This document shows positions 12,746 to 61,932 of a stretch of 64,000 nt of DNA, piece by piece. The notes beneath the pieces were generated by a model, which was not told the origin of the DNA, ran no database searches, and saw nothing but the letters and a program-made list of their open reading frames with translations. This DNA comes from Eledone cirrhosa (taxonomy: Eukaryota), in contig OZ024742.1 of NCBI GenBank assembly GCA_964016885.1, positions 355,508,001 through 355,572,000 of the forward strand. The letters run 5' to 3'. A program made the position numbers and the translations under genes. The stretch's first letter is position 1, and each line of letters begins with the position of its first letter.

Positions 12746-13197
12746 TTCGTGAAGACCTGAAAATCCGCCTCTTCATTGCTGTAGTGGAGTATGTGCTGCT
12801 GTATGGCTCTGAGACTTGGACACTGACTAAGAAACTCACTCAGATGGTGGATAGGTGCTACACGAGAATGCTGAGGATGGCTTTGAACATTAATCAGTAT
12901 ACACTGAGGATGAAAAACTCAGAGCTGTATGGGAGCATCCCAAAAGTCAGCTCAAAAGTGACAGAGAGGAGACTGACGTTAGCTGGACATGCTCACCGAC
13001 ATCCAGAGTTGACATTGCACTCAGTGCTCCTTCGGGAGCCCCTACATGGACACACTAGAAGAGGAAGACCAAGGTTAACGTATGTTGATGCCTTAAGGAC
13101 AGACACTGGACAGACGCAGGACATGGCAGCGATAATGGGGGACAGAGACCGCTGGAGAGAAGTCGTTCATGGATCTCGGGAATTATTACCCAACTTA
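12746..13197 (+). mobile_element. RTE-clade LINE, 3' fragment
   Basis: [22 protein letters not shown]...RRLTLAGH...RGRPRLTY...DRDRWR. Confidence 0.9.
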
Positions 13198-13267
13198 GAA
13201 ATGTATATATATCTATATTTTCAGGTTTCCCATTTACAAATCTATATTTTGAGGTTTCACATTTATT

Positions 13268-15183
13268 CTGCTCCTTCGATCCCTTCCTCCACTTCACCAC
13301 CTCAATCTCCACCACCCACGTCCACTTCTTAGACATCTCCGTCGCCTTCGACCCCATCTACCACTCCCTCGTCACCTCCGCCTTCTTCAAACCCACCGAC
13401 TCCCACTCTTACCTCGATTTCACCCCTTCCCACCCCACCCACACTAAACACTCCATTCCCTACTCCCAACTTCTCAGGATCCGCCGCCTCTGTAGCCGTG
13501 ATGCTGACTTTGAGACCCAGGCCCTTTCCCTAGTCAGCCATTTCATCCGCAGAGGTTACCCCCCCCCCCCTCTCTCGTGTACACCGCTCTCACCCGCGCC
13601 CGTGCTGTCCCCCGCTCCACCACCCTCACCCCACGCCACCGCACACCCACCCACCGTCTCCCCTTCTCCATCACCTACCACCCCTCCACCTTACCCCACC
13701 ACCGCACCCTCCACCGCCTCTTCCGACGCCTCCAGTCCGACCCCTCCACCTCCCACATCTTCCCAACCCCACCACTCCCCCCTCCTTATCACACGCACGC
13801 ACCCACTGGCACATATATACACGCGCTCACACTAAACACACACCCTACTACCACCACTAACCCTCACCCACACACCTCCATCCCACCACCCCGCAACCAA
13901 CCTCACTAACACCCCCTAACACAAAGCACACGAACACACGCACCCACTTACACCACCCACCCCACAAGCAACTAACATCACTAACACCCCCCAACCCCAC
14001 CCACACGTACCCACACACCCTCGTACACCACCAACTTTACACACCCTACCACCACTAACCCCCACTCACACCTGCATTCAACCCCTCCCCATCTCCCGTA
14101 TACTAACACCCACTAACACCTCTTCATCAAACTACACACACACCAGTACAACACACTCCCTCCATAGAACCACACACACCCTTCTCTCCCCGCTCCACCC
14201 ACACCCTCGCTCCACACTCACTCATCCCACTAACACCCCTACTAATACACACACACACACACACACACACACCCTCCTCAATCCAACTTTCACACCTACC
14301 CATCCTCGCCCCCTTACCTTTCCACCGACTGCTGCTATGCCCTCTGACCACCTCCAAGCACTAACAGACCACAGCACTCCCACTGCTGACCACTTCCTGT
14401 TGCACGCGCACCCCACATCTCTCCTCATCTGACCACCGCTTCATGGATTACCCACACGCACAAATTGACTTACAACCAATCCACTAAACATCCTTGGAAC
14501 TTACCAACCTTTCAACCATCATCTTACGTAATCACCTATATAACTCACCCACACACACACCCCAAAAAACATTTTTTATCCACGCGCCACCCACACCCAC
14601 AACACGCTTAAACGCCACACACGTGCTTGCCACCACATATTTACACACTCAGCCTCCTGATTCATCTCCCCCCACACACACCTCTTCCTGAACATGCAAC
14701 CCCGTTCTTCCCCCAACCCTTACTTTCACATACACACACACACACACACACGCGCACACATACACACACACACCACCTTCAGCCCTCCCCGCTCGGACAA
14801 CTCCCCTCCCTCCCCCCACTCCACCCGCCACTACCCCTACTCACCCCACACCTTTCCACCACCTGTTTACCCCCCTTTTAATTTCAGTTTATTTTGATCA
14901 TGCCTTTATTTTTAAATTTTCACATTCCTTGTATTTTGATCATGCTTTATTTTTATTTTTTATCTTTATTTGTTATTTTTTCATTCGCACCGTTTCATTC
15001 ATCTATATGTCTCTCCACCACTCCCCTACACACCTTTTGAACTCTGTTCCCACACACTTCTCACCTGAGGAAGGGATTATGCCCGAAACGTCGTCCCCCA
15101 CCTACCCCCACTCTCCTGAGCGTGAAATTAATAAACATTTATTGTACTGCCTCTCTGTTTTGTCCCTGTTCAAATGATTCCAT
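13268..15183 (+). mobile_element. Penelope-like element, Neptune-like, 5'-truncated
   Basis: A frame not in the ORF track reads HFLDISV...FFKPTDSHSYLDF..SHP...KHSIPYSQLLRIRRLCS...RRGYP, then PFSITYHP; 3' region has an HHR and AATAAA (about 15130), then (TA)n. Confidence 0.85.
15062..15096 (+). ncRNA. Minimal type-I hammerhead ribozyme in the PLE pseudo-LTR
   Basis: CAC-CTGAGGA-A-GGG-attatg-CCC-GAAAC-GTC-GT; typical PLE HHR core. Confidence 0.8.
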
Positions 15184-18427: not shown

Positions 18428-21962
<3,535 letters not shown>

Positions 21963-29126: not shown

Positions 29127-29834
29127 GGAACGAGTAGGACCCCGACGGCTGAGCTCAAGCCGTTTAGACGGCTAATTCTGGACTGAATAAAAAATATAAT
29201 CCTGATATTTGAATAGCCGAGCTTCCCAGGGGATAATTCCCTATATGGTAAAAGTGATTTTCACAAGGATTGGTCAAACGTTTGTTGTTGAGACATAATA
29301 ATTCTATCATGGCAATTTGTGGTGGGTAGAGATAGTTGAACCTGCCAGTAGAAGAAAGAGGGAGAGGGGGTGGAGGAAACACAGTCGTGGTGCGTCGATA
29401 GTGCCAACTACAGCTGGGCATGAGGTCAAAGAAGATACCATGGGGGAGGGGGAGGATGCCGAAACAATAAGTAAAACAATATGGGGTAAATACATAGAGA
29501 AATACCGAGAGAGTTAAAAAACAATTAAATGTAAACAAAAAAAAAAACAATTTCTGGTTACTATAACCTAAGGACAGCTATCAAGTCTCTCACTGGTACT
29601 GCTAGACTAAAGAAAGGTTTACTAGGTGGGACGGAATTATAATGAGGCCCTTTTAAGAGGTATAAGTAAACAACCGAATATATCTTACGGTGACGGGTCA
29701 ACAATTGGGGGGCCAACAAATTAAAGAAACTACCACGAAATAATAGTTCAGAATCCCGACACCAGTACGAAATAAAGGTTTTTACCCCAGGCACAAGGCC
29801 AGCAACCACCCAGTGCAAAAAAAAAAAAAACTCC

Positions 29835-31070
29835 AGATGGATGAAGAGAGCTCCCGACTCACCCTTCGACGTCAGGATGGGCGCGACGGATTCGGCTGAG
29901 GTCACAGATCTTATAGGATTATTCCTAATAACCAAACTCACCGATTTGTTTCCTGCATTCGGCGGTGGATTGTACCGTGATGATGGGCTCCTTACCCTTA
30001 AAGGGTACAACCCCAGTAGTAGAGATCGGGACCGTAAACAATTAATCAGCTTCTTCCGCGACTGGGGATTTAAAATAACCCTACAAACGTACCTGACCCG
30101 AGTAAACTTCCTGGATGTTACCCTTGACCTCGATAATGATCTGTACAACCCATACAGGAAACCTAACGACAACCTGCACTACATCCACCGCCGGTCAAAC
30201 CATCCTAGGATCATCACTAATATCCTGGTTAAAAACATCTCCCTCCGCATATCTGGTTTGTCAGCTAATGAGCAGATATTCGAGGAACATGCGCCTTATT
30301 ACAACCAGGCACTCAAGCGGAGTGATTTTCGGGGGGAAATATCCTACTGTCCAGCTTCCATTATGGGAACCAGCAGGCGACACCGCCGCTCACGCAACGT
30401 AACATGGTTTAATACTCTCCACCACGCCGAGGTGACAACTCCTATCGGGAAAATCTTCTTTAGACTCATTGAAAAACTCTTCCCACTACAACACCGCTAC
30501 CACAACATAATTTACAAAAATACCATCAAACTCTCCTACAGTACCACACCAAACTTTGCACAAAATATCCTCTCCTCTAACAACAAAAAACTCAACCCCT
30601 ATGGAAGAAATAACCTAAATACCAGTGGATAGCCGACCAGGAGGTGCAACTGTCCTGATGGATCCATTTGCCCCTCGACAACAGATGCATAGATCGTAAT
30701 GTGATCTACCAGTGCAACGTGAGGACGGACACCTTCAACAAAGCTTATATAGGATTAACCGCATGTGACTTCAAGATCCGGCTATACCAACACAGACTAC
30801 CTTCCGAAACCCGGCCCGGCGTCACGCCACTACACTTTCGGGCCACATATGGGACCTCAAGGATAACAATATTACCTAATATCTCACTTGGAGCTTACTA
30901 TCCAAAGCCAACTCTTACACGGGAGGACGCCGTCCGTGCAATTTATGCTCGGAGGAAACTTTACAAATGCTGTTTTCGACGGACCAACTCCTAAACAAGA
31001 AAGATGAACTGGTAACTGCATGTAAACACTGATTGCGTAGGACTTACCTCGCCCTTAAATCCCATAATGA
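29835..31070 (+). pseudogene. Naiad-like RT (motifs B and C, thumb) plus GIY-YIG, with stops and frameshifts
   Basis: FDVRMGATDSAEVTDLIG; GLYRDDGL; NFLDVTLDL; PYRKPN; SNHP; CNCPDGSICP; VIY...YIGLT; CNLC; LNKKDE. Confidence 0.9.
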
Positions 31071-32472: not shown

Positions 32473-32489
32473 GACGGAGAGAGAAATAA

Positions 32490-32500
32490 ATAGATAGATG

Positions 32501-32580
<80 letters not shown>
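32490..32580. repeat. (GATA)n microsatellite; continues at about 38302-38324 on the other side of the LINE
   Basis: Direct observation. Confidence 0.97.
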
Positions 32581-32812
32581 CATTTCTATTTATTTGCCAC
32601 GAGGGCACAAAAGAAGGGGACATTTACACAGTGGGGGAGTTTACATAAATCGAGTAAAGAAAAAAGGAATAACAATAATAATATAACAAGAAAAAGTCCT
32701 CAAAAGGGAGGGGGCGTGTTGGGGATTGCACATACCCCCGAAAAGTGTGCAACTCTTTTCGCGGGGGAAGCCCAGAGAGGAGGCGCTCCCCCTTTCCTCT
32801 TCACTTCTTCAC

Positions 32813-35800
32813 CTACAGAACAATGTAGAGAGAAGGCCCATTTACACGGGCCATTCTCGCTTCTTTCACCCACCTTTCATAAAACTGTCTGGGACCAAGC
32901 ACTTCTCTCTCCATCCTGATTCTTCTTCCGAAGTGGTATCGGAAGAAGTAAACCAGGTGATGCCCGGAGAGAAAGTCACCCGACCTCAGACCTTTCAGGC
33001 GCGTCCACCACACAACCTCTTTCATCATGGCTATTACGCACAGAAAGACCGCCTCTGCTTCATTTCTGAAGGGAGGAGGCGGCTTGATGTTCACCACAGA
33101 CTCGGCGGTTAATCGAATCGGAGCCACACGCGACAGCAGTCGTTCGACGTAGCCCCACAGATCGGCAACGCCCGGGCAGTGTACCAGTGCATGCGCAACG
33201 GTTTCCTCGTCGCGCACGCATCTGGGACAGATCTTTTTCGCGGGATCCCTGCCCGGGCGCCCGTGTCTGTAGAGCTTTTCTCGAACGGGCAGAGCCCCCC
33301 GGTAACACTGCCAGGCTAGGGACCTCTGGAAGTTGTCCATGGGTCCCGGGCCGAAAGTTCTACCGAACAGGCTGGCCAGTTCGTCCTCCTCCATGCCTAG
33401 CGACTCTCCAAGGGTGTCGTCGCCCCTGCTAGCCACCAACCCTCTATAGAATGTCGAGGTGGATTCTCCACTGACAGTCGGGTCCGCTTGCCAGATAGCC
33501 GTGAGCGCCTGGGCACACTCGGTGTGCCAGTTGCCCAGTTTTCTCGGTCTTTGCTTCACCCAGGATTGCAGTTCGGTGAGCGAGACGAGCTGTGGGAAGG
33601 CTCGCCTCACAAACGGGGCCCACACCGTCTGACCGTTGAGGAATACCTGTAGATGCCGTAGCCTCAATGCGTGCCTACGCATCAACAGCCACGGCATACC
33701 CAGCCCTCCTTTCGAAGGGTGCTGGCAGCAGATGGATCTCCTCACCATGGGAGGCCGCTTCTTCCAGAGGAACTGGAAGAGCATGCGTTCCATGATGGTG
33801 AGCTTTTCCTTGGGGCAAGGCACGACGGTCAGGCGGTAGTAGATGACGGACGCTATGTAAGCGTTCGTCACCTCCGCCCGACCTTTCAGTGATAGTTTGC
33901 ACTTGGCCCACTTCTGGGTCAGCGCAAACACCCTGCTCGTCACCTCGCCCCAATTCTTCTCCACCTGGAGGTCCGGTCCGAACCAGACCCCGAGCAGCTT
34001 CACCGGGCCCTCCGTCCACCGCCCGACGACACCGTCTAACGGCATCGGTTTGCCCCTCCACGTTCCGAGTTGCAAACCGACTGACTTGTCCTGGTTCAGC
34101 TTAGCCCCCGTCAGCCTTTCGTATTCCTCCAGTAGGGTGGCGATCGCCCCGATTTCCGAGGCGTCCGCCACCATTACTGTTACGTCGTCGGCATAGGCCG
34201 AGACCGCTTTGTGCAATCCCGGTTCCAGGGGTATGCCCCGCAGCAACTCCAACTTCCGCAGCAGTGGCTCGAGAGTCAATACGTACAGAAGGAAGGAGAG
34301 GGGGCACCCCTGTCTGATGGATCGGGTGATTTGAAACGGCTCCGAGAGGTAGCCGTTTACTTTAATCCTAGAGTAGATGTTGCCACTGTGCATGGCAGAA
34401 ATCCAGCCCCTGAAAACGGGTCCGAAGCCCGCCGCCGCTAGCACCGCATCCAGGTAACCATGGTCGACCCTATCGAACGCCTTAGATTGATCCAAGTTGA
34501 TCAGGGCCCCACCAAAGCCGGGTTCGTAGCCAACCCTCTCTATGATGTATCGCATGAGGTGGAGGTTGTCGTGAATGGACCTGGACGGGATAGCGCATGT
34601 CTGCGCGTCTCCCACCAAACCACCCACCACACCACCCACCACAAGCGCCAACCTCTTCGCCAACACCTTGGCCAAAATCTGTAACTCTGCATTCAGCAGA
34701 GTTATGGGCCTAAAGTTACTTAAGTCGTCCCCCTTGCTCTCGTCCTTCCTCACTAGCGTGACCACGCCCTTGGTCACAGAACAGGGAATTCTCCCGTTCT
34801 GTTGCCAGTTGCAATAGACAGCCTCGAGGAGTTCGGAGAACAAGACCGGCATAGCTAAATAAAGTTCGTATGGTAGACCATCGAGACCCGGGGATTTGCG
34901 TCTGCTGCATTGGCTGAGCGCTTCCCCGATTTCAGTGGCTGTGATTGGCCTTTCGCAGCACTCCGCTTCGCCGCTCGAAAGACGCGGTAGACCGTCGAGG
35001 TATGGACCGAAGTCCACATCCCCGTCCGGCCCCCCGCCACCTCCGAACAGTCGAGCAAAGTGCCTTTGAAAGGTCTCGCACATTCGCTCAGGTTCAAGGA
35101 TCACCCGTCCATCCTGGTCTCGCAAAGACCGAATGGTGGATTTAATCCCACTCTTGGCTTCTGTCACGCGGGCCCAGCTAACAGCTTTGGTCCCCTCGTT
35201 TCCTAAAGCACGTATTTTACTTCGGACAACGCAGCCTTCGTGCTTCGCGTCAAAGAACTGGCTCAATGCCATTCTCGTCGCTAACACTCTGGCTACGTCT
35301 CCGCTCCTAATCGCCTCTTCTAGTTTATCTGTTAACTCCCTTTCCCTCCTATTTCTATTCGCCGCTAGTTCCTTACTGTAACCTATCGAACTTACTCTAA
35401 TCTCTCTCTTTAGAGATATCCACCACCTACTGTTGACGATCGCTCCCGTCAACCGCATCTTAACTAAGCTACTAATCCGGTTTCTGTAATCTTTCTTTGT
35501 CGGTAAGGACAAGTTCATCTTCCAGTAACCGGGACCCTGTCTATGCGTTCTATCAAGGTTGACCACGCAGGTCACTAATTTGTGATCTGAATAGCCAACC
35601 ATGATCAGTTCTGGACAACTAAATACGTCCCTATCCTTACTCCTAACCAAAAACCTATCTAGGTACGATCTAGATTGTCCACTGCGGTTTGCCCAGGTCC
35701 AGGTTGGCGCAGTTGGACAATCTAGTCGAAATCTATCGACCAGGTCGAATCGATCGAGTAACCCCTTGAGGCTGCTACACCCCCCTCTATCGGGACATGC

Positions 35801-36266
35801 CCCTGCATAGTCCCAACGCGCATCTAGGATTCCATTCCAGTCCCCCACTAAAAGCAGGGAACGCGACGTTACTAGAAAAGTCTCCAGACGCTGGAAGAAG
35901 TCGGCTCTTCCCCCCCCGAAGGGAGCATAAAGACCGACCAGTCTGAAAGCCCCGCCTTCACCGCCTCCGACGTCCAGCACCAGTAATCGACCCCCCGGGT
36001 CCGAGTGAACAAGCTGTACGTCGAGAGTCAGACGTTTATCCAGCAGTACGGCAACTCCCCCCCCCCCCGCCTCCGGGTTGACAGAGAGATGGGTGCATCT
36101 CAAAGTCATCGAAGGCGGGCGCCAGCTGTCTCACGCTGCTGATCCGACTCTCGCAAACAACCATCACATCTATACTTTGTGACCTGAGGTCACTTAGAAG
36201 CTTTGCTTGCTTCCAAGCTGAGCCCAGGCCACGCGCGTTCAAACAGCCAACTCTCAATTGATCTAT
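32813..36266 (-). CDS. ORF2: APE endonuclease, reverse transcriptase and C-terminal CCHC finger; one frameshift in a homopolymer at about 36057-36068; expected ATG reads ATA
   Basis: LNARGL, CE, GGVAVL, LYAP, GDWN, YLDR, SDH (APE); KSPGLDG, RPITLLN, LDQSKAFDRV, RQGCPLS, YADD (RT); CPRC..ETVAHALVHC; joins ORFs 36036-36257 and 32813-36109. Confidence 0.93.
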
Positions 36267-38099
36267 TTTGGTGTTGAAAGTGAAGAAAGAAAAGCACTTA
36301 CCTCTCCGGGTTGCGTAATTTCCATGGCATCAGGTGTGTTGGGTGGAGGGATGTTTTGTGGTGGTGTGGGGGTACACGTGTGTGGTGGGGTTGGGGTATT
36401 TGGAGTTGTGTCAGGGAGAGGGGCGGTTATGGGGAAATCTTTCAAGAGGACGCGATTCAACGGTTTTAAACAGGGGGGGGGCTCACGTCCCGTCTAAATT
36501 GTTCTTTTAAGGAACGATAAAGGTCCAGAGGGACCTTTATCATTTTTAAATGGGTGAAGTTCTCTGTTGAGATAAAGTTTGGCCCTTCGGTCTGCACCAT
36601 AGGGTTATTGTTTATTAATTTAACCAGTTTTTTGTTTTCTTTATTTATATATGTGTATTGCAACGTCTTTTTTTGTGATGCTGTCAATGTTTCGGAGAGG
36701 GGAGGCGCAGATTTATTTTTGTTTGTTGAGGGTGGGGTGTTTTTGATTGGAGTTGGTGTTTGTGTGTGGGTTATTTGTGGTGTGCTGGGTGTGTGTTTTC
36801 TTTTTTTTCTTTTAACTTGTCTGAAGGCTTCTCCTCCTTCTTCTTCAGAAGTTGGGGGAAACTCTTCAGCGCTAGGTAGGAGGGACGTGTTGTGTGGTTG
36901 TTTTTTTTTGCGGGAGGGGTAGATTTGTTACTGTTTTTTTTATTATTTGTTTGGAATGGGTTTTGTGGTGGTGGTGGTAATGTTTGTGTCGTGCTTGTGG
37001 TTGGTGATGGTGGTGGTGATGTTTGTGTTGTGGTTGGTGGTGGTGATTTTTGTGTCGTGCTTGTGTTTGGTGCTGGTGGTGGTGATGTTTGTGTTGTGTT
37101 TGTGGTTGGTGGTGTCTGTATTTTGTTTGCTGTGTGTGGTATTAGTGTATTTTTGGAGGTGGGTGGTGTTGGTGTACTGTTGGTGGTGGGTGTGGGCAAT
37201 AGTCCTTTTTGGGGGATACGTTTCGGGCAGTTAGCCTTAACGTGTCCCCTTTCCATGCATAAATAGCATGCTGGTCTTCTCCCCTCTACAATTATGTCTA
37301 TTGGGGTAAGGTCATCCAGCCAGATGCGATCCGGGATTTGTGCTATTCTTTCGGGCCTCATTTGGACTAGTATGTCGAGGCCCATTCCCAGGAACGCATC
37401 TCCAGTTGCCTTCCCCATTGACAGCATTGTGTCTTCGCCCATATCAATGAAGCCAGCAATAGCCCACCAGAAGTCCATTGTGGGCAGCATTGTTTTTACT
37501 TTTACTCTCTGTGTTCTTCTACCCATGTAGGAGGGATAGAAGCTATATGTTGTCGACGAGAGTGGGCTTAGGGAAAGCTTCTCCGCCGTTTCTTTGTCTC
37601 TTGTTAGGACCGAAATGCTGCCATAGAGTCGGTCCTTTCGTATGAAGAGAATATTCTTCATATAGTCTTTTAGGACTAACTCTATTTCCATTTTGCTGGG
37701 CTGTGCTGGCTTTCTTGTCTGGTTCAGTATAGTTCTGTAGAGAACTGTGTTTTCTGCTCTGGCTTTCTTGAATTCTGGGGGGGGGGAGTTAATGGAAAAC
37801 ATTCCGTTCTCCCCCAAAACAATGTGTTTCTTTGCTTCGGCCAGTTTTTCTCTGGCGGCAGTTAGGTCAATTGGTGTGTATGTAATGGATTGTTTTGTTT
37901 TCTGGGCGAAAGTTGCCCTGTCGTTATTTGTATTATTTTCTGTTTGTTTGTTTTCTGTTTGCTCATTTTCCTTAACATTTGTTTTTTCATTTTGTTTGTT
38001 TGTTTCAATGTCTAATTTTGTTGTAATTATTTTTTGTTCTTCAGACTTGGGGGGCGTGGCAGAGCTAATGGCAGACATCTCTGCTATCTTTTCCGCCAT
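36263..38099 (-). CDS. ORF1 (gag-like): CX2CX4HX4C zinc knuckle, Thr/Pro-rich linker, basic C-terminus; two homopolymer frameshifts
   Basis: TFAQK, PSYMGRR, IIVEGRRPACYLCMERGHVKANC; pieces 36771-38126, 36466-36687 and 36263-36460 join at runs near 36901-36909 and 36473-36482. Confidence 0.88.
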
Positions 38100-39239
38100 G
38101 CTGCCAAGAAAGAAATTTTTCGGCAAAAATAGATATTTATTTTACCCCCTAAAAAGGGGGTAAATGCAAAAATGTTTCCCTAAATAACAGGGGTTAGTGT
38201 TCCAAATGTGTTGCACTAAAAAATGTATCCGGTACTTACAATAGTAAGGGTAAATCCCGATGGAATAGCGGAGCCGATGCGAAGCGTGTCTTACTCTATC
38301 AAGATAGATAGATAGATAGATAGATTGCTGAACAGTATTCAAACTGTCATTAATATTTAACAAGAAAGTCAATCTAAACATTATTTGAATAATTTTTGAA
38401 GGTACGTACATGATTATCAAATATTTTCCCCGGTAGCATAGAGATGAGTAACGACCTACTATATATAATTTCATAGAGAACAATATGAAACATTTTGTAT
38501 TTTAATGATTAGCAAGCTTTCCCTAAAAGTAATACATTCCTGGTATCACAAGTTTAACGCATTGCATTAGAAATTGACAGTTAAATATTTAACGACTTGG
38601 GAAATTATCGAGTTTAATGTGATAATTAGTGAACAAATTAATTAATTGTAATCTTGTTTCTGCTGTGTTTCGTCGAAATATAGAGGATGATGAACGTACC
38701 TTACTCTTCACAAGAAAACGTGAAAGCATGTTTACTATATAAGCAACAACATATAGACTTGTCTCATGTCCCATGGGAATTCCTGTAAATTAGGCAGCTA
38801 TTTAAACCAAATCGGGAATGTCTATAACAATTAGCAAAATGCCGAAGGGTATATACCACAATGCCGAAGGGTATATACCACAATGGAGCATCCTGCATAA
38901 TAAATACAAATACAATAGGCTTTCACATATGAAATCTGAAATCTACTACAATGAATAATTTTGATTGTAACATATGAGTGAATAATTTTGTAGAGCAGAT
39001 TTCTCATTTGGGATGATTAAAATCTAAGCATATTACACGAGAGAAATAAGTTAATGAAGTTGAATTGATTCATCGGTTTTTTTTTTGTTTTGTTTTTTTT
39101 TTCTGTGGAGACGTTATACAAAGTATGCAGACATAACCTTATCTTATTTTCGAAGCGAAAGATACAATAGCAAACGCTGAACGCCGTTGATGCCATGTAA
39201 TTTCTTCAGCAGGATTAAGAGTGATTGATGTATATAAAA

Positions 39240-39564: not shown

Positions 39565-39690
39565 GCAAGAAAAGGAGAGAGAGAAAATTAACCGATACTA
39601 GGACTTAAAGTGGGAGTTGAAAAGGATTTGGAACTGCCATGAAATCAATGTCGTCCCGATTGTCATAGACTTACAAGGTACTATCTCAAA
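39565..39690 (+). mobile_element. R4/Dong-like RLE C-terminal fragment
   Basis: KEREKINRY*DLKWELKRIWNCHEINVVPIVIDLQG resembles KLSKYKDLEIEIGKMW...IPVVVGAL at 61.5 kb. Confidence 0.65.
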
Positions 39691-42616
39691 GAGATACGAT
39701 CTGGATGACCCGATGCGATTTGTCCATGTCCACATTGGCACATTCGGGTGATGCAGTCGATACCTGTCAGAGAGTTCAAAACGTCTAAGCTGGTTGGTGA
39801 GGCTCTTGCACTCTCCTCCCCTATCCACTAGCCCCACACAATCCCAGCGTGCATCCAATATACCGCTCCAGTCGCCCACTAACACTAAAGAACGGGACGT
39901 TCCAATAAAGGTCTCTAGACGTCTGAAGAAATCTGGCCGTCCTGCCCCAGTTGGGACGTACTAGCCTAAAAGCGTTGCCTTCGCTGCCGGTCACTTCCAG
40001 CAGCACCGACTTACCTTCTGGGTCCAGGAAGATGGCTGTAGTGCGAGATGCAAGCCTCTCCGAAAAAGCATGGCAACACCTCCACCAATCCTGGACGGCT
40101 GGGAGATGCTTATATATCGTAGCCGCCGAAGATCGGTGCGAAGGCTTGTTCTTCGGAGATTCTGGTCTCGCTGATGGCCACCACATCTATGTTTAGTAAC
40201 CTGAGGTCCTTGAGCAGGTGACCCTGCTTCCAAGATGAGCCCCAGATCACGTGCATTTATACTGCCTATTTTAAGTACGGCCATGTTGGATGAGAAACGG
40301 AGCAAGTGAGAAAGGGTCACTTACCTTGATCGTGTGGTGAAGGGACAGTAGAACCGTCCCTTTGGCTGGTGATGGGTGTTTCCAAGAGAATGTCAGTGTA
40401 TATCCTCTTGGTAACCGAGACTCTAAAGTCGCCAACTGCGTTGGGGAATCTTTGTTTCAAAAGTGTGTACTGTTCTATTTTGAAATCAAAGATGCTTATG
40501 TTTATCGGGAGAGTTATTGATGTTGGTGGGGTGTAGTAGTTTTGTTTCTGTGATATCTGTGTGCTGCTTTATATGTTATATGAGTTCTTTATGTGCCATG
40601 TTTATGGCTGTGTGCTTTTGGGGGGAGGGGTGATTTTGTTGCTGTTTTCTTCTTGTTGCTGTTGAGTGTGTGTTTTGTTGTGTTTGCGTTGTTGGTGTTT
40701 TTGGTGTTGCTGGTAGTGGTGTGGTTGTTGGTGTTGGTGGTGCTTGTGGTGCTGATGGTGATGGTAGCGGTGTTGCTGAAAGTCTCCTTGCAGCCTTTTC
40801 CCCTCTTTGTGTTCCTTCGCTTTTGAAGGGTGAAGCTAAGGGTTTTTTTCTTTTTTTCTTTTTTGTGGCAGACCGATTGCCACTTCACTCCCGCCTCAGA
40901 CTCCATGTCGGATTCCGTGGCGTCTGGGAGGGGTGTGTGCTCTACGGCTGTTGGTGGTGGTAGTGGAGCCCACTCAGGCGATTTTCTTGCTGGTGTAGCT
41001 ACTGCAAATGTAGCTACTGGTGTTGCCGCCACTGATGCTGCTGCCTAGTTGTCCGTGGCCTTGGTACGGGTGCCACGGACGTTGCCCCCCTACTAACTGT
41101 GGAAGGGGCTTCTGCGTTTGTTTACCTGCCCTGCTCTTGGCAGCAGATGACCAGGTAATGGAAGGAGAGGGGCTTTCTTCTTCGCTGTCTTCTGCGCACA
41201 AAAGGCCCTGAGGTGACCCTTTGACCCACATAGATAACATTTTGGCCCTCTTTCTTCCACGCTTATAGGAAGTTGGAGTCCTTCCTCGATGTCTATGATA
41301 TCGGGTATAGCGTCTATACATTCCTGGTCAGTTTGTATAAGCATTAGCATGCCTATAGCTGACCAATTCTCTCTCCCTATTTTCTCTACTTGCAGCATGG
41401 TCGTCCTGTTCTCGATTCCAGTTCCAGCAAAGACAGACGCGGCCAGCCAAGGTATGGGCACGTCTGGTGGGACCTGGGTCACTTTGACCCTCACAATTTT
41501 CTTCCCGCAGTAGGAGGGCACCAATACTATATCCTTACTCTTTATGGTTTGCCAAGAGCGAGACGTCACTTCTTGGGGGTGGCGAAATGTACGTCTACAG
41601 TGGCGTACTTTTTGCCTCGGATGATGTGGGGTTTGCGCGCCCAGACGCACCCCAAAGCATTTTGGATTTGAGACTCCGTGGCTCTCTCCACCCGATGTGA
41701 CATTTTACTTACGGTGCGGTAAATAACCGTCCGTAGCTGTTGGTCCTTGAAAAATTCCGGATGGAGGTTTCAGGGAAACTCTATTGGCGTTTCTTGTAAC
41801 CATGGCCCTTGCGACTGCCATCTCCTCCTCTGTGACTAACACTGTTTCTATATTCCGGGCGACACCTGAAAAAGAAGTGGTCCCTTTTTTAGAGGCACCA
41901 CTATTGCTGCCAATACTGGTCTTGTTGGTGGTGCTGAGATCGCTGTTACAGGTATCGATCTCATTATTGATATTTTCGTTGGTACTGTTGTTAGTGTTGT
42001 TGTTGTTGTTTTCGTTGATACTGTTGCTGTTGTTACTGTTATTGTGGCTGTTGTTATTATTGTTGTTTTTGTTGATAGTGTTCCAACTATTATTGTTGTT
42101 GTGGCCGTTGTTATTGTCATTGTTATTGTCATTCTCGACCTTTCTGCTCTTATTTTTGTTGTTGCTGTTGTTATTGGAGGTGTTGTTGTTGATGCTATTG
42201 TTGGTGTTGTTTGTGTTAGAAATATTTGGTAATTTTAAATCTGTAACAATATCATTAAAAATGCTATTGTTCCTCTTTTCCTTCGTAATATTTTCTTTTA
42301 TATTTACCTTCGCTAGAACGCTGTTTTTTTTATATGTAGAGAAACTCTCCCTCACTCTGTATTGTCTGACAAAGCTCTCTCTCTTTTTTGTGTTATCCAT
42401 GTTGAAAGAAACTTTTTTTTTTAAATATTATTTTTACACAATACGACACCCCGTAAAGGGGTGCCGTATTATTTACGAGTGAACCACTGTATTAGGTGAG
42501 TCACTTCTTCTAAACTTTTATCAAGTTTAAAACTTTAATAAAAGGTTTAGAACGGTTGAAAATGAGGTAGACCGTTGAAAAAAACAGGAGGCGATAAGAA
42601 GTGTGGCTTCACCTTC
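39690..42616 (-). mobile_element. Tx1-like element, 5' half (ORF1 plus APE domain), degenerate
   Basis: Asn-rich ORF1 with VPSYCGKK and CYLCGSKGHLRAFC; ORF2 start MAVLKIGSINAR (40284); GDWS; 5' end abuts (TAA)n. Confidence 0.9.
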
Positions 42617-42642
42617 AATAATAATAATAATTATAATAATAA

Positions 42643-45012
42643 TGTTTTCTTTATTAACCACAAGGGTTCACATAAAGTAGACATTAAGGACAGTACAGGA
42701 CAATACAGGACGGTACAAATGGGCATTTCTGCGTGTAAAAAAACAGAGGTTGAAATAAAATAACAAAGAAAAATTCCCCAATAGGGGGGAGACTTCCGAG
42801 GGACATTTGTGGAGAAAGCCCATTAAAAGACCACAGTGGCCCTGACCACCAGGGCAAGTGCCCTCTCCCAGTTGTCCACCTTTAATTTACAGACACATAC
42901 TCAGAGAAGGCCCATTCATTCGGGCCATACTTGCTTCTCTCACCGATCTTTCAACAAAATGCTGGGAAGAGAGCAATTCCATCTCTACCCTCATTTTCCT
43001 TTTCAAATGAAATTTGTAAAAGTTAATCAGGGCATCACCGAAGATGTAAGTGCTCGTCTTCAGCCCTTTCAAACGTGTCCACCATACTATCTCTTTCGCC
43101 ATGGCCACCAGACAGATAAAAACTGTCTGCCCTTCCCGGCTAAAGAAAGGGGGCGGGGCAATCCTCACGATGGACTCAGCTGATAGCCGGATCCGTCCTA
43201 CACGTGACAGCAGGTGTTCGACATAAACCCACAAGTCAGCAATGCTCGGACACTGGACGAGTGCGTGCAGGACGGTTTCGTCGCTCTGCGCGCATCTCGG
43301 ACATGCCCGGCTGACGGCACCTCCTTGCCTGTAGAGTTTATCTCGAACTGGCAAAGCTCCTCGGTAGCACTGCCAGGCCAGGGATTTCTGGAAGTTGTCC
43401 ATAGGCCCCGGCCCGAAAGTCCTTCCGAAGAGATTGGCTAGTTGATTTTCGTCGACGCCTAGAATTTCTCCAAGTACATCGTCGCTCTTCCCCTCCACTA
43501 ATCCCATATAGAACGCCAAGGTGGAGTTTCCACCGATCACATTGCCCGATTGGTCGAGGGCTGTGAGCACCTGAAGACATTCCAGTCTCTAAGCGCTCCC
43601 TCTCGGTCTTCGCTTGACCCAGGACTGCAGCTCTGTCAAGGAGACGAGCTGGGGAAAAACGTGTCTAGCAAACGGCGACCACACCTGATCACCGTCGAGG
43701 AAGAGGTGGAGATGTCGTAGCCTGAGCGCGTGTCTGCGCATCATCAGCCACGGCATGCCCAGCCCTCCACGTAGCGGGTGTTGACAGCAGATGGACTGCC
43801 TGACCATCGGAGCGCGTCCCTTCTACAAGAAGCGAAAGAGCAAACGCTCCAGCGCAGTCAGGCGGGGCTTAGGACAAGATACGACGGTTAGGCGGTAGTA
43901 GATGACGGACGCGATGTACGCGTTAGCCACCTCCGCTCGACCTTTCAGGGATAGCTTCCTCTCGGCCCATTTCTGGGTGAGAGAAGCCACCCTGCTCGTC
44001 ACCTCGTCCCAGTTTTTGTCCGTCGGGAGGTCTGGACCGAACCAGACCCCTAGCAATTTAACCGGTCCGTCCGTCCAGCGCCCGACGACGCTGTTGGACG
44101 GCATGGACCTGCCTCTCCAGGTGCCGAGCTGCAGGCCCACTGACTTTTCCTGGTTGATCATTGCTCCTGTCACCGCTTCGTATTCTCTTAGTGTAGTGCC
44201 GATCGCCTCGATGTGTTTGGCGTTCGACACCACTACGGTGACATCGTCGGCATATGCTGACACGGATCTTCCGCATCCTAGTTCGCGTGGGACCCCCTCA
44301 ACGTCTCCAGTTTGTGCAGTAATGGCTCGAGAGTCAATACGTACAATAGGGACGAGAGGGGACATCCTTGACGGACCTAGCGCATGATGTTGAACGGTTC
44401 CGAAAGGTGACCGTTCACTCTCACTTCAGAGCAGATGTCGCTGTGCATGGCAGCGATCCAGCCTCTGAAGACGGGCCCAAAGCCAGCCGCCCTCAGGACT
44501 GCCGCTAGGTAACGATGGTCGACCCTATCGAAGGTTTTGGACTGATCTAAATTGATCAAAGACCCACCCGTGCCAGGTTCCCTAGCTACCCTCTCTACGA
44601 TGTATCGCATGAGGTGGAGGTTGTCGTGAATGGATCTGTTGGGGATGGCGCATGTCTGTGCCTCTCCCACCAGACCAGCAACGACAAGCGCCAACCTCTT
44701 TGCTAGCACCTTGGCCAAAATCTTGAACTCTGTGTTTAGCAGAGTTATGGGCCTAAAATTATCTATGTTATCCCCCTTGTTCGGATCCTTTCTCAGCAGC
44801 GCCACCGCTCCTCGGCTCACAGAGCTGGGAATTCTCACGTTCTGTTGCCAGTTGCAGTAGACGTCCGTCAAGAGGCCTCCGAACAAGTTTGGCATTTGTA
44901 CGTAAAGTTCATAGGGCAGACCATCTAAACCAGGCGATTTACCCCTTGTGCAACTAGTCATTGCTACCCGTACTTCAGCGGTTGTTATCGGCTTTTCGCA
45001 ACACTCCGCCTC
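42643..45012 (-). mobile_element. Tx1-like element, 3' half (RT, CCHC finger, 3' UTR), degenerate
   Basis: KSPGLDG, LDQSKTFDRV, YADD, CPRC..ETVLHALVQC; stop at 42887; AATAAA then (TTA)n. Confidence 0.92.
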
Positions 45013-45411
45013 AGATTCTGAAACGGAAATACTAATTCAGTGCTATCGTTGTGACGAACCCTCACAACAACAAACAGAATGGTGGGTTGTTTCCACATCA
45101 AGTCTATACTCTGTTTATGTTTACTGTAATCCTGTTACCAATAGCTTAATTATTGCAATCTACACCTGATGATTTCGCCAAAGTCTTACATCATCTAATG
45201 ATGTAAACAGACCAGAGAATTATAATTAATATAGAAATGGCTTCTACATGACTAGAACTGTTTCCTTCGAAGTCGAATGAATATTTTAAAGCCTGTAGAA
45301 GTCATTTATATGTTAAATCTGTTGTTTTTACTCTACTAATGTATTGAGTACCGTACTTACTGTTGCTAACCATGATTGAACACGGGACTCACTCACATAC
45401 ACACACGGGCA

Positions 45412-52730: not shown

Positions 52731-52958
52731 ATACCGTCTTGCCAGATGGTTGAACATCTGAAAGTATATACTTTCCTTATGCATATTAAAGGCTGAGCAG
52801 CCTAATATGCATATCGCGTGCGTCAATCGGCCGGGGTACCGAAATGATAAACGGTAAAAAGGAAACGAAATTTCATTTTTCACTTTTAGTACGGCTGTTA
52901 CTTAAATATAAGTATATATACGTACATACATATATGTATACAGACGTACAGTAGTATG

Positions 52959-53026
<68 letters not shown>

Positions 53027-53078
53027 TATATACATATATAGATATAGATATATATATATATATGTATATATATGTATA

Positions 53079-53219
<141 letters not shown>

Positions 53220-53224
53220 ATATC

Positions 53225-53773
53225 TCTAAGGTGGGTAAAATTCCCGAGATCCATGGACGAGTTCTCTCCAGCGGTCTCTGTCCCTCATTATCGCTGCCAT
53301 GTCCTGCGTCTCCAACAGACCAGTGTCTGTCCTTAGGGCAGCAACATACGTTAAATCTTGGTCTTCCTCTTCTACTGTGTCCATGTAGGGGCTGGCAAAG
53401 GAGCACTGAGTGCAATGTCAAATCTGGATGTCGGTGAGCATGTCCAGCTAACCTCAGTCTCCTCTGTGTCACTTTTGAGCTGATTTTTGGGATGCTCCCA
53501 TACAGCTCTGAGTTTTTCATCCTCAGTGTATACTGATTAATGTTCAGAGCTATACTCAGCATTCTCGTGTAGCACCCATCCACCATCTGAGTGAGTTTCT
53601 TGATCTGTGTCCAAGTCTCAGACCCATACAGCAGCACAGATCCACTACAGCAATGAAGAGGCGGATTTTCATGTCTCTACGAAGGTCCGACCTCGAGTAC
53701 CGATCTCAAGTTGGGGCACGCCGCCCAGGCCTTGCTCTTCCTCTCAACCACATCATCTTCCGTATTCCCAATC
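53225..53773 (-). mobile_element. RTE-clade LINE, 3' fragment
   Basis: RKSKAWAAC...MKIRLF...LLYGSETW...RLRLAGH...RGRPR; ends in TA/TG microsatellite. Confidence 0.9.
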
Positions 53774-55122
53774 TTTGGGCAGTTGAGTGCCGTTATCGAA
53801 GTCTATCACATCCGGGATAGCTTCGATGCACTCCTGGTTGGTTTGGATTAACATCTCAATGGAGGTGCCGAACCAATCTTCTCGTACCTTTTTCCGTACT
53901 TGCAGTACAGTTGTTTTGTCCTCGGTTCCGAAGAGGACAGACGCGGCCAGCCAAGAAGGGGCCAACCCGGGAGGGACGTGGGTCAGTTTGACCCTCACAA
54001 TTTTTCCTCCGCAGTAGGAGGGCACCAACACCATTTCCTCGCTACTTAGGGTCACTAAGGATTAGGTCTTTCCGTCTGGGGTGTGGCCAAAAGCACGTCC
54101 ACGGTGGCATATTTCTTGCCTCGGGTGATATGCGTTTTCCGCTGCCACACAGACCCTGAGGCTTTTTGTATTTGAGCCTCTGTCGCCCTTTCAACCCTAC
54201 GTGATTGTGTGCTTACTGTACGGTACGTGACCATACAGTGCGGCTGGGTTTCGAAAAAGTTTTCGGCTGCCTTGCAGATTGCTCGGTGTCCAGTTTTCGT
54301 CACCATCTTCTTTGCTTCCTGTAATTCCTCATTTGTTATAAGGATGGTTTCCAGGTACTTTGCGATACCTGCAAACGAAATTGTTTTTTCTTTGTTGTTG
54401 TTGATGTCGTCAGAGCTGCTGTTACTTTTGTTGTTGCGGCTGGTACTACGACTGCCGCCGCCGCTGTTGCTGTGGTTGTTGTTGTTGTTGCTGCTGGTAC
54501 TGTTGTTGTTGCTGTTGGTGCTAATGCTGTTGTTGTTTATGATGCTGCTGATGCTGCTGCGGCTGCTTCTGCGGCTTCTACTGTCGTTTTCCTTGTCACT
54601 GTTGCTGCTGCTGCTGTTATTACGGCTGCTAATGCTATTATTCATGACGTCAGACGAATGAAATGGGTTTTCGTATTTATCGTACACATTTTTCGTCGTT
54701 GTCGTCGTCGTGGAGAAATGATCCACGTTTTGCACGTGATTTTGGAAACTATTTTTCTTTACTGGCGTCGCTTGCGAAAAAGAAGGGAGGGAGAGAGACA
54801 CATTTAGAGAATGGAGGGAGAGAGACAATCTTCTCTCTGGTGTAGTGACGATTGAGGAAGAAGAAGACGGAATGAGTGGGAGTGACTTGTGAAAATTATT
54901 TTTGTAGCCATATTTTTTTGGTTTAAAATAAATATTGGGCACAAAAACCCAATAAGTGTTTATTTAGCACCGAAGGACCAAATAACGGGCAGAAAGACCC
55001 CTTCACGGTGAGGAGTGTGTTTTAGTCTACAATTTGGTTAAAGTTTAAAACAATTTACAATTGTTATAGCGGTTGAAATTTACAATACCTTACAGACCGA
55101 GCCTCCGTCATCCATGGCATTC
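53774..55122 (-). mobile_element. Tx1-like element, 5' UTR plus ORF1 N-terminal part
   Basis: Asn/Ser-rich region, SFAGIAK, RRVERATEAQIQKA, VPSYCGGKIVRV; 5' end abuts (TAA)n. Confidence 0.88.
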
Positions 55123-55143
55123 AATAATAACAATAATAATAAT

Positions 55144-58100
55144 GCTTTCTTTATTAATCACAAGGGTTTACATAAAGTAGACATTAAGGACAGCACAGGA
55201 CAATACAGGACGGTACAAATGGGCATTTTTGCGTGTAAAAAAAAACAGGATGTAATAAAAATAACAATGAAAAATTCCCCAATAGGAGGGAGACTCCCGA
55301 GGGACATTCGTGGGGAAAACCCATTAAAAAAACCTCAGTGACCCTGACCACCAGGGCACGTGCCCTCTCCCAGTTTTCCACCTTTAATTTACAGACACAT
55401 ACTCAGAGTAGGCCCATACACTAAGGCCATTCTTGCTTCTCTCACCCATCTTTCAACAGAACGCTTGGAAGAGAGCACTTCCTTCTCTACCCTGATTTTC
55501 CTTTACAAATTAAATTTGAAAAAGTTAATCAGGGCATCACCGAAGAGGTAAGTGCTCGTCTTCAGCCCTTTCAACGTGTCCACCATACTATCTCTTTCGC
55601 CAGGTCCACCGGACAGATAATAACTGACTGACCTTCCCGGCTAAGGGAATAGGGCGGGGCAATCCTCACGATGGACTCAGCTGATAGCTGGATCCGTACT
55701 ACATGCGACAGCAGGTGTTCGACATAAACCCATAAGTCAGCAATGCTCGGAGACTGGACGAGTGCGTGCAGGACGGTTTCGTCGCCCTGCGCGCATCTCG
55801 GACATGCCCGACGGAATGCACCTCTATGCCTGTAGAGTTTGTCCCGAACTGGCAAAGCTCCTCGATAGCACTGGCAGGGCAAGGATTTCTGGAAGTTGTC
55901 CATAGGCCGCGGCCCGAAAGTTCTTCCGAAGAGTTTGGCTAGTTGATTTTCGTCAACGCCTAGAATTTCCACAAGTACGTCGTCACCTCGTCCCAGATTT
56001 TGTCCGTCTGGAGGTCCGGACCGAACTAGACCTCTAGCAATTTGACCGGCCCGTCCGTCCATCGCCCCAGGTGCCGAGCTGCAGGCCCACTGACTTTTCC
56101 TCGTTGAGCATTGCTCCTGTCACCGCTTCGTATTCTCTTAGTGTAGTGCCGATCGCCTCGATGTGTTTGGCGTTCGACACCACTACGGTGATATCGTCCG
56201 CATATGCTGACACGGACTTCCGCATCCTAGTTCGCGCGGGACACCCCTCAACGTCTCCAGTTTGTGCAGTAATGGCTCGAGAATCAATACGTACAAGAGG
56301 GACGAGAGAGGATATCCTTGGTGGACAGAGCGCATGATGTTGAACGGTTCCGAAAGGTGACCGTTCACTCTCAACACAGAGCAGTTCGCTGTGCATGGCA
56401 GTGATCCAGCCTCAAAAGACGGGCCCAAAGCCAGCCTCCCTCAGAACAGCCGCAAGGTAACGATGGTCGACCATATCGAAAGCTTTCGACTGATCTAAAT
56501 TGATCAAGGACCCACCCGTGCCAGGTTCCCTAGCTACCCTCTCTACGATGTATCGCATGAGGTGGAGGTTGTCGTGGCTGTATCTGTCGGGAATAGCATA
56601 TGTCTGCACCTCTCCCACCAGACCACCGACGACAAACGCCAACCTCTTTGCTAGCACCTTGGCCAAAAGCTTGAACTCTGTGTTTAGCAGAGTTATGGGT
56701 CTAAAATTATCTGTTATCCCCCTGGTTCGGATCCTTTCTCAGCAGCACGGCCGCTCCTCGGCTCACAGAGCTGAGAATTCTCCCGTTCCGTTGCCAGTTG
56801 CAGTAGACGTCCGCCAAGAACCCTCCGAACAAGTCTGGCATCTGTACGTAAAATTCATAGTGCAGACCATCCAAACCAGGCGATTTACCCCTCTGTGCAG
56901 GCTTTCATTGCCTCCCGTACTTTAGTGGCTGTTATCGGCTTTTCGCAACACTCCGCCTCAGTGGGCGAGAAGCGGGGCAGTGCGTCGAGGTAGACACGAA
57001 AGTCCATCCTTCGATCCGGCCGAGCGCTGCACCCGAACATCTGAGTGATGTGTCGCTGAAAAGCTTCACACATTTTCCCCGGAGGAGTAGCATGCGCCAG
57101 TCTTGGTCCACCAAAGAGCGGATCGTGGCTTTGTTGCCACGACGCCCCGCCGCCACTCGAGCCCATTGATCGGCTTTCGTTCCTCCTGCCTGAGAGCACT
57201 CAACCTAGCTCTGACACGGCAGCCTTCGTGCTTTGCATTGAAGAATTGGGCAAGGGCCAATTTCGCCGCAAGTACTTCTGTTGCGATGCATTTGCTAAGC
57301 GCCTCGTCTAATTTTCTAACTAGTTCTCCCTCTGCTCTATTTTTCTCTAAGGCTAAAGCCTGACTAAACCTAATGGACTCTATTCTAATCGCTCTTTTCA
57401 GAGCAGACCACCACTTGTTGTTGACGATGACCCCCGTCAACGCCCGCTTAGCTAGTTCGGTCTCTGTAGGCTTTGCGCGCTGGAAAGGACGCGTTTAGCT
57501 TCCAGTAGCCGGGTCCTCGTCTATGAAGCCTATCTAAGTCAAACACACAGATCACTAATTTGTGGTCCGTGTAGCTGAATATCTTGAATTGTGGACAGCC
57601 TATGCTAGACCTATATATTTCCCTAGAAAATACTCTATCTAGATGTGATCTGAATGATCCTATACGATTTGTCCAAGTCCACATTGGCACATTCGGGAAA
57701 TCCAATCGGTACCTGTCAGACAGTTCAAAACGCCTGAGCGGTTGGGGAGGCTCTTGCACCCTCCTCCCCTATCCGCTAATCCCACACAGTCCCAGCGTGC
57801 ATCTAAGATCCCGTTCCTGTCGTCCACTATCACTAAAGGGCGGGACGTTCCGAGTAAGGTCTCCAGACGCCGGAAGAAATCAGGCCGCCCTGCTCCTGTC
57901 GGGGCATAGACGGCCACTAGCCTCAAAGCTTGCCCGTCTCCGCTGGTCACGTCCAGCACTACCAACTTGCCTTCTGGGTCCAGGAAGATGGCCCGTATGG
58001 CGAAATCCAAACCTTTCCGAAAAAGCACAGCAACTCCTCCTCCCGATCCAGGACAGCTGGGTGATACATACACACGTAGCCGCCGAAGATCGGTGCGAAG

Positions 58101-60236
58101 GCCTGTGCCTCTGAGATTCTGATCTCGCTGATGGCCACCACATCTATGTTTAGCGACCTGAGATCGTTCAGCAGGTGCCCCTGTTTCCAAGACGATCCCA
58201 GGCCACATACATTTATGCTACCTATTCTGAGAGTAGCCATGTTGGCTAGGATAGGAGGAAAACAAGTGAGAGGGGAGAGGTAAAAAAAACATTACCTGTG
58301 GCTCTTCTTTAGGAAGGGGGTGGGTGATCCATCCCTCCGACCATTGGTGGGTTTCTCCACGAGAATATCCGTGAATATTTTGTTGGTGTTGTTCCCTCGG
58401 TAGTCTCCAATTGATGTGGGGAACATTTTTTTTATGTTATGTATGTTTGTGTGTGTGGGGGGTGCATTTTGGTGGTTTGTACGTAGTTTGTTTCTGTGAT
58501 GTTGGTGTGGTGGTGAATGTAATTAAAAAGCTTTATGTTGTCTGTGTCTATGGCTGTGTATTTTGTCTGCTGTTTCGGTGTTGGTGTTTTCTGTGTTTGC
58601 TGTTGTGTTGTTGGAGGTGACGATGGGGTAGATGGTAAGGTTGGTGGTGGTGATGGTGTAGGTGGTTGTAGGTGTGTGGCTGTTTATGGTGGGGTAATTT
58701 TCATTTTATTTTCTCTTAAGATTCTTTCTTCCTCTTTTTTTGAGGGTAGGGAGTTCTTCCTTTTTTTTCGATGGAATAGTCCTCCACACTTCGGCCTCAT
58801 CGCACTCCTTGCCCGATTTGACTATATCAGGAAGGAGTATGCTTTCCATTGGTTTTGTGGGTGGTGGAAGAGATGGTGTTTTTGTTGTTGGGGATGGTGA
58901 TTTCTCTTCTGCCACTGTGTTCTTTGTTTGTTTGTCTGCACCAGTTGCGGGGCACGGCCTGGGGAGAAGGTGTAGGCGCGTGCCTGTTTTGGTAATTTTG
59001 GGGCAGACTGTCTTAAGGTGCGTCTTGTCACCGCATCCATGGCACCTTGGACGCCTACCTTCGACAGGCACGCGTAGATGGCTGCAGTCGTCCAGGTCTA
59101 TTATATCGGGGATGGCCTCAACGCTTACGTGGTTTGCTTGGATGATTAGCTCAATCTCCGACCCTGTTCAATTTTCCTGTCTTATTCGTATGACGTTGAG
59201 TATAGTAGTTGAATCTTCAACGACAGCGAGGTCGGCTGCCGTCAACCACGCCATCTCCACTGAGGGTGGAACCTGTCCTACGCGAGCCCTCGCGACTCTC
59301 TGGCCGCAATGTGTGGGCATCATTGTGATTTCGTCGCTTCGGAATGGTGCGATGGAGCGTGCTCTGGCTTCCAATGGTGTATCGAAGAGCACAGCCACAG
59401 TCACATATCTCGATCCTATGGCTATATATGTTTTCTGTGCCCAGACGGCACCCATAGCTCTTTGGATCTGTGACTCCGTTGCCCGTTCGACTCGCCTAGA
59501 TTTTGATTTGATCCGATCGTGCGATAACTGACCGAACACAAAAGCTTGTTTCATATTATCTCAGCTAGGCGGATGAGACTTACTCTGTGTCCGGTTTTTT
59601 TAACCAAGACCTTTGCTTGTTTTATCACTTCGTTAGTGATGTTTATTTGCTGAAACTTGTTGGTCGCTTTAGCGAAAGACGTGTTTGTTTTGATTTGTGT
59701 TGACTCATCACTAGTTTTGTCTTTGTTGCCGTCGTTGGTGTTTTTGTTGTTTTTTGTTCCTCTGTCTTGCTGCTGTTATATATGTTATTATTTGGGTCCT
59801 CTGTGGTTGTTGCTGTTGTTATTGTTGTTATTGGGGTGGTAGTGATGTTTGATTTCTGTAACGCATGACATTTTTCGATATAATTTTCGCTACTGCTACT
59901 ACAGTTCCAATAGCTGCTGCTGCTGTTGTCATTACCACTGTCACTGTCGCTGCTGTCGCTATTTCTCTTGTTTTTTACTTTACCTTGTGATTGGGTGGAA
60001 ATGGCTGTTCTACCCTCTGAACAACTCTGTTGTTCTTCTCTGTGGACAATTTTGTTTGTCCGCCATGTTTAATTTTTTTTGTTATGGGATTATGATTGTA
60101 AATAAAAGCAAACTTAGCCCTCAAGGGCGCGAGATACAGTTAACAAAAAAACAACCTTCTTTGAAAGAGGGGATCTTTAATTACACACCGATGTAAACAT
60201 TCAACGAACTTACTCCGCCGTAGTTATCGCCGTTTT

Positions 60237-61882: not shown

Positions 61883-61932
<50 letters not shown>

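Follow-up and report, generated by a model that had tools for sequence, protein, structure and literature searches.

ORF2 of a Tx1-type LINE in Eledone cirrhosa lies between a conserved splice donor and a candidate acceptor, both within a predicted long-range helix

Long interspersed nuclear elements (LINEs) are thought to express both of their proteins from one unspliced RNA, and splicing of that RNA is viewed as a dead end. Here we describe a LINE of the Tx1 type in a 64,000-nt stretch of the Eledone cirrhosa genome (assembly GCA_964016885.1, contig OZ024742.1, positions 355,508,001 to 355,572,000 of the forward strand), hereafter the window, in which the whole second open reading frame (ORF2) lies between a consensus splice donor and a candidate acceptor. 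The element belongs to family D of a group of sister families A to H, which are ad hoc labels taken from diagnostic motifs and not from a tree. A first-pass annotation of the window had read ORF2 as an intron. We tentatively favour a copia-like scheme in which part of the RNA is spliced to an ORF1-only mRNA and the gate is a clamp, that is, a long-range RNA helix between the two ends of ORF2. No description of ORF2 as an intron, or of such a helix, was found for a LINE in the literature searched, where coverage of subscription papers is thin.

The closest described systems are compared here and below as they appear in the accessible parts of the papers cited. Drosophila copia removes a 3 kb pol intron, shGAG splicing is known in Arabidopsis Ty1/Copia elements, and in EVD U1 serves both splicing and protection (PMC5580714). 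As in copia and EVD, the Eledone element has its donor where the structural gene ends, excision of the enzyme gene is predicted to leave a structural-protein mRNA, the unspliced RNA is the genome, and U1 may have a double role. In contrast, copia and EVD are long terminal repeat (LTR) elements with a single gag-pol frame and proof at the RNA level, whereas this is a two-ORF LINE, known from sequence alone, with its whole ORF2 bracketed and a co-varying helix; given this architecture, it may at most work like a copia-type element and is not a member of that group. Human L1 likewise has splice sites within LINE RNA, but SpIRE splicing, which takes place in the 5′ untranslated region (UTR) or in ORF1, spares ORF2 and yields retrocopies, is a dead end (PMC5860796), whereas the donor described here is conserved between families and the search for retrocopies came up empty. 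SART1 couples stop and start through UAAUG, with RNA structure near the start (PMC3894237); in family D, too, the ORF1 stop overlaps the ORF2 start and structure is predicted nearby, but AUA overlaps UAG and the pairing is with the far end of ORF2 rather than local. Kibi and Koshi, Tx1 LINEs that target (TC)n and (TTC)n microsatellites, share with it an ORF1, an endonuclease-reverse transcriptase (RT)-zinc finger ORF2 and insertion into simple repeats; here the target is (TATC)n, in sister families (ATT)n, and the accessible part of that report mentions no splice site or helix for Tx1 RNA (PMC4494074). Fold-back of the poly(A) tail, which suppresses nonsense-mediated decay of an engineered reporter, also draws a 3′ end to an upstream site by long-range pairing but involves neither a splice donor nor a LINE (PMC2689704). 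A repeat analysis of O. vulgaris names L1-Tx1 families, and the strings 'splic' and 'ORF' are absent from its main text as accessible (PMC13282606).

ORF1 of the window element (minus strand, 36263..38099; 611 amino acids in intact copies, stop codon TAG at 36265-36263) contains the 5′ splice-site consensus GAG/GTAAGT at 36296..36304 (minus strand), cut before the GT with its G at 36301. As first annotated, this donor lies 35 nt before the ORF2 start position (ATA, 36266); it is in phase 0 and 36 nt before the ORF1 stop. By an ad hoc U1-pairing score (the splice-site scores used here are simple ones, not trained on the host genome) it scores highest among the 265 GT sites of the window copy, and it ranks first, ties allowed, in 24 of 33 elements. 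Of 67 distinct ORF2 starts, 58 have the donor motif 24-61 nt ahead of them, versus 118 of 6018 control windows (2%). These starts were gathered blind to the donor by means of a degenerate pattern for the endonuclease (8804 matches, 40 stretches fetched), and were supplemented from 200 kb beside the window and from 20 more stretches, two of them obtained by a family B motif search. Eight of the nine starts lacking the motif have a recognisable damaged donor, and the ninth is unalignable. The prediction that both splice sites are conserved in young copies held among 30 family D loci, which as best-scoring matches are biased to identity: the donor is intact in 29, the other having GTAGGT, and the acceptor is kept in all 30.

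The donor occupies phase 2 of ORF1 in families A, B, E and H, where the ORF1 stop falls within the motif, phase 1 in C, F1 and G, and phase 0 in D, and the ORF1 sequence flanking it is unalignable between families. Because the motif is kept in three ORF1 phases, coding cannot explain it; judged by this pattern, the donor is a selected nucleic-acid signal, independent of ORF1 coding or of the stop codon. It is quite improbable that the motif is a relic, or arose by accident from an Arg codon and a stop, and that the bracket has no function. Such an origin would suit the Arg-stop reading of the motif in phase-2 families and the fact that all families examined form one clade, with ORF2 proteins ~55-80% identical (30 of 30 loci from a zinc-finger search of the genome fell in this clade, and no more distant Tx1 family was found there). 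It would also suit the one whole ORF2 among four distant metagenome loci found outside this genome, an L1-like element with neither donor nor helix; no relatives were found in viral contigs. However, the motif persists in phases 0 and 1 without encoding a stop, amid unalignable ORF1 sequence, and a consensus donor that merely destroyed ORF2 RNA should be lost.

At the other end, the ORF2 stop codon TAG (32815-32813) is itself the AG of a candidate 3′ splice site (32813..32836, minus strand), which reads TTCTGTAG, its G at 32813, and is followed by GTG. The resulting GT-AG bracket around the enzyme gene of family D runs on the minus strand from 36301 to 32813, and its span of 3489 nt agrees with the first annotation. 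Its removal would leave ORF1 with three further codons and a stop, and intact copies do read through the donor in phase 0 (five of 20 open for at least 625 codons). The stop AG scores first of 263 AGs in the window copy. Among the ~260 AGs of each element it ranks 1-2 in family D, 2-5 in E, 12-15 in F, 24 in C, 23-27 in G and 51-75 in B, all of which have TAG as the ORF2 stop. The acceptor is, on these scores, the weaker end of the bracket.

What follows the stop AG depends on the phase of the donor. The first stop in the donor's own phase lies within 11 nt of the stop AG in 22 of 24 elements (7 of 8 lineages), compared with 14 of 48 cells for the other phases (4 of 16 by lineage). A near phase-1 stop is present in all eight phase-1 elements and in none of the 16 others, the phase of F2 being assigned by homology. 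Stops that track the donor phase in this way would fit translation of an ORF1-only mRNA and favour real use of the stop AG.

It is unlikely that the donor is used mainly with some other acceptor, whether the second candidate ~252 nt before the ORF2 stop (33066..33088, minus strand), a family A site ~160 nt beyond the ORF2 stop, or acceptors downstream in read-through RNA. By score, the −252 site comes first in A, C and F1 and third in D, and in family A, which has no TAG stop, the +160 site is among the top three, with a high-ranking AG at −252 as well. However, the pyrimidines of the −252 site are those of Pro and Phe codons, and the family D exon-end motif search and the family A junction probe both came up empty. 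A short intron producing an in-frame ORF1-ORF2 fusion in family D was rejected: the AGs 39, 49 and 51 nt past the donor miss the ORF2 frame. In the family H copy of the window, a 50-nt GT-AG stretch (58295-58246, minus strand) ends 5 nt before the ORF2 ATG, and its AG ranks first in that element.

The predicted helix, which was absent from the first-pass annotation, brings the two ends of ORF2 together. Its 5′ arm (36257..36310, minus strand) comprises the last ORF1 codons, the donor, a pyrimidine spacer and the first ORF2 codons; its 3′ arm (32771..32824, minus strand) comprises the last ORF2 codons, the stop and the first 42 nt of the 3′ UTR, including a stretch complementary to the donor. 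For the window copy, 48 pairs are predicted between 36310-36257 and 32771-32824, at −61.1 kcal/mol. The core arms reach −50.6, a value as low as which occurred in none of 300 shuffles and compares with −37.4 for the best of 354 other windows; the best other window was beaten by eight of nine family representatives. With two unclassified rows and chimeric copies excluded, assigning each arm to its cognate ranked first of 5040 permutations over seven families, and the mean energy over eleven lineages was −44.0 for cognate arms versus −35.5, the cognate arm being the best partner in only five of the 11 rows. First ORF2 codons are paired with last ORF2 codons in a family-specific manner. The donor is covered on its exon side and from base +5 onward in B, C, D and F1, and over the whole of GTAAGTG in A and G; in C and F1 the prediction leaves its TAA core unpaired, and yet that core is kept. 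The arms co-vary between sister families, while the helix itself is a prediction. In the LTR element Ty1, long-range pairing of the 5′ and 3′ ends acts in reverse transcription; it involves no splice donor, and Ty1 is not a LINE. In chimeric copies (locus L119; window 60100-55140), where a C-type or H-type 5′ half is joined to an A-type 3′ end, the helix arms would mismatch.

The same helix could act purely on unspliced RNA, in the control of translation or decay, with the donor as no more than a landing site for U1 and no splicing at all. We regard this as possible, though short of probable. It might place the poly(A) tail beside the ORF1 stop, thereby protecting the bicistronic RNA against nonsense-mediated decay, which we hold possible to the same degree; it is conceivable to a like extent that the ORF2 start stays hidden until the ribosome ending ORF1 melts the helix, and that U1 protects the nascent RNA and is displaced once the 3′ UTR is made. 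Such a role would agree with a helix that encloses exactly the ORF2 frame, that pairs its end codons family by family and that is present in family A, which lacks a stop acceptor, as well as with the lack of a spliced retrocopy in D, A and B. There are precedents for each step: folding the poly(A) tail back to the stop suppresses decay in human cells (PMC2689704), RNA structure influences initiation of SART1 ORF2 (PMC3894237), and full-length EVD RNA is protected by U1 (PMC5580714). However, the phase-matched stops would be left unexplained. Moreover, seven families have zero or one AATAAA in ORF2, and a conserved upstream poly(A) signal as the target of U1 was rejected, since the AATAAA ~320 nt before the donor stands at non-homologous codons and is missing in G; there would therefore be little for U1 to suppress.

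ORF2 (32813..36266, minus strand) encodes an endonuclease, an RT and a zinc-binding domain. PF03372 and PF00078 were above the Pfam cut-off, and PF13966, at E 4e-4, was below it. In ORF1 no Pfam family was detected at E 0.001, and a CCHC-like knuckle can be read from its sequence. The first-pass annotation needs two corrections. In the window copy the reading frame is broken at homopolymers, twice in ORF1 and once in ORF2 (at the G run 36068-36057), and the start position in family D is ATA, not ATG, a point that had gone unnoticed. Start position and ORF1 stop overlap as ATAG at 36263..36266 (minus strand), with no ATG in family D. ATA is found in 30 of the 30 best-matching family D copies and in older ones too, and no genomic copy has another third base in the family D start context. 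All 30 copies have the ATAG overlap, that is, the overlapping stop and start of SART1-type coupled termination-reinitiation with AUA as the start. Sister families have ATG at this position; a short deletion before the donor sets D apart from B and placed the ORF1 stop on the start position. The next in-frame ATG of family D ORF2 comes after the first conserved endonuclease motif. In human L1, initiation of ORF2 is independent of AUG.

Among 24 family D copies, ORF2 changes common to at least two copies comprised 36 silent and 21 replacement changes, against 65 silent and 136 replacement changes among those private to one copy (expected silent share 0.28; Fisher p 5e-5). By this measure family D ORF2 is under purifying selection despite its missing AUG, and was therefore translated there. 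In the lineages without AUG this was most likely achieved by reinitiation at AUA.

In the favoured scheme of partial, clamp-gated splicing, pairing of the arms at both ORF2 ends would form a clamp that covers the two splice sites together with the start and stop of ORF2. U1 would bind the donor during transcription, and the 3′ arm, made 3.5 kb later, would compete with spliceosome assembly, a race that would set the spliced share. ORF2 would be spliced from part of the RNA to give an ORF1-only message, and clamped molecules would escape splicing and stay full length. In the spliced RNA the new stop would lie just past the junction, so that no junction would be downstream of the stop; on the full-length RNA, ribosomes terminating at the ORF1 stop would reinitiate at the AUA that overlaps it and so make ORF2p. 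With its donor strong, its acceptor weak and its inhibitor made late, the element would produce a minority or stage-specific ORF1-only mRNA and keep the full-length pool. The first-pass annotation had invoked ORF1:ORF2 stoichiometry as a reason for splicing; this argument is not compelling alone, because bicistronic LINE RNA already yields much less ORF2p than ORF1p (PMC3894237).

Several results weigh against splicing. On the acceptor side, a comparison of splice-site scores across families, suggested at first pass, upheld the donor and showed the acceptor to be poor in B, C, F and G and lacking at the stop of A and H, both of which end in TAA; family A is the commonest type among the first 100 matches listed for the endonuclease pattern. 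Helix pairing and ORF2 codons also account for the pyrimidines and for the G after the stop. The phase test amounts to about two or three independent switches in related families, subfamily B2 has no near stop, and family A keeps TAA or TGA two bases past its stop without an acceptor, so near stops can arise from pairing. As for the helix, it would mask both splice sites, the opposite of a bridge that promotes splicing; the global fold of lowest energy for the 3.8 kb region does not contain it; family E fails the comparison with other windows; and with 100 nt of flank it exceeds the best of nine control windows in six of eight families, C and D being those in which it does not. Processed copies form a further point. 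Genomic copies with precise loss of ORF2, which the first-pass annotation had named as a check and which SpIRE-type splicing leaves, were found in none of families D, A and B: in the genome there are 0 processed family D copies vs 360 unspliced donors, the family A junction probe gave 0 matches, and the eight matches of the family B junction search were all point changes or small indels. This is weak counter-evidence because an RNA without ORF2 needs help in trans.

Taken as a whole, the reading of ORF2 as an intron retains its conserved donor and the stops whose phase tracks the donor's, but has no processed copy and an acceptor that is poor or absent in most sister families. A genome search with the family D exon end and any continuation lacking A at +3 gave no match, and a search of the protein database for spliced ORF1 proteins gave no homologue of ORF1 residues 300-611. 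In run X4, one of four assembled into contigs and all of unrecorded kind, single contigs cross the acceptor (32590-33181) and the donor (36081-36427) unspliced, which we use neither for nor against splicing; the predicted joint is not among the 15 of 98 joints listed and is counted neither way. In that run contigs are deeper over part of ORF1 (window 36505-37040) than over ORF2, an excess that stops more than 120 nt upstream of the donor; a single divergent copy seems to predominate, and depth in contigs is no basis for ranking the parts.

New in family D are a phase-0 donor no longer tied to the stop codon, an acceptor that is the clade's best, and an ORF2 that is AUG-less yet selected. Partial splicing gated by the clamp and a clamp acting on translation or decay can coexist. 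A broader proposal, which we consider rather doubtful, is that the whole of ORF2 is a regulated intron and that one co-evolving clamp hides both splice sites and both ORF2 ends, chooses between ORF1-only mRNA and genomic RNA, and gates the AUG-less restart of ORF2. A donor kept by selection together with a helix enclosing exactly ORF2 would imply an RNA-level switch that is undescribed for LINEs in the literature searched. It would bear on how ORF2p stays scarce and on how a bicistronic RNA escapes decay when 3.7 kb follow its first stop, and the AUA-start family offers a natural test of non-AUG reinitiation.

The complete element is ~5.7 kb long (32581..38302, minus strand), as delimited by ends shared among fetched copies: of the family D copies fetched whole, 20 of 20 have the common 5′ end and 19 of 20 the common 3′ end. 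The exact donor 28-mer of the family occurs at 360 places genome-wide, and the 40 best matches to the window element are 98-100% identical to it, indicating that D is a young and numerous LINE family. Among the 20 whole copies ORF1 is open in five, ORF2 in five and both in two. The target microsatellite (TATC)n flanks the 3′ end at 32486..32580 (neither strand assigned), with a short run also at the 5′ end near 38303-38325, and this repeat borders the 5′ end in all 20 family D copies fetched and the 3′ end in 19 of them. Two ORFs, an AATAAA poly(A) signal (32589..32594, minus strand), no LTRs, and an ORF2 with AP endonuclease, RT and C-terminal zinc-binding domain are the architecture and domains of a Tx1-clade LINE; the Tx1 label comes from this architecture and from the first-pass naming. 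Among 120 listed homologues there was no named Tx1 reference, the nearest named one being a hypothetical protein of Argonauta hians (68% over the RT region).

Several family D copies form tandems ~5.7 kb apart (L045/L046, L054/L055, L027/L028, L083), each insertion recreating the target repeat. One family D copy (L100) has a ~380 nt internal ORF2 deletion that keeps the frame, and at L106:6600-6700 a family B copy, 5′-truncated ~8 nt before the donor, lies within the (TATC)n tail of a family D copy. The 3′ UTRs of all families have a common TTTAC(A/T)CG motif 60-90 nt before AATAAA (window ~32655), which ends in CAG, making an acceptor, only in family A. Four further Tx1-type pieces lie on the minus strand of the window at 39690-45030 and 53780-60140, in head-to-tail pairs joined by (ATT)n: an ORF1 with a truncated ORF2 (~42400-39690), a 5′-truncated ORF2 (45030-42640), a degenerate full copy (60100-55140) and an ORF1 fragment (54910-53780). 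The donor is present at both ORF1-ORF2 borders of these pieces. Elsewhere in the window are ORFs that we take to be Penelope-type RT and GIY-YIG fragments (616-2097, 19519-20804, 29694-30632) and putative fragments of other LINE-like RT genes (12730-13332, 52873-53676, 61159-63740).

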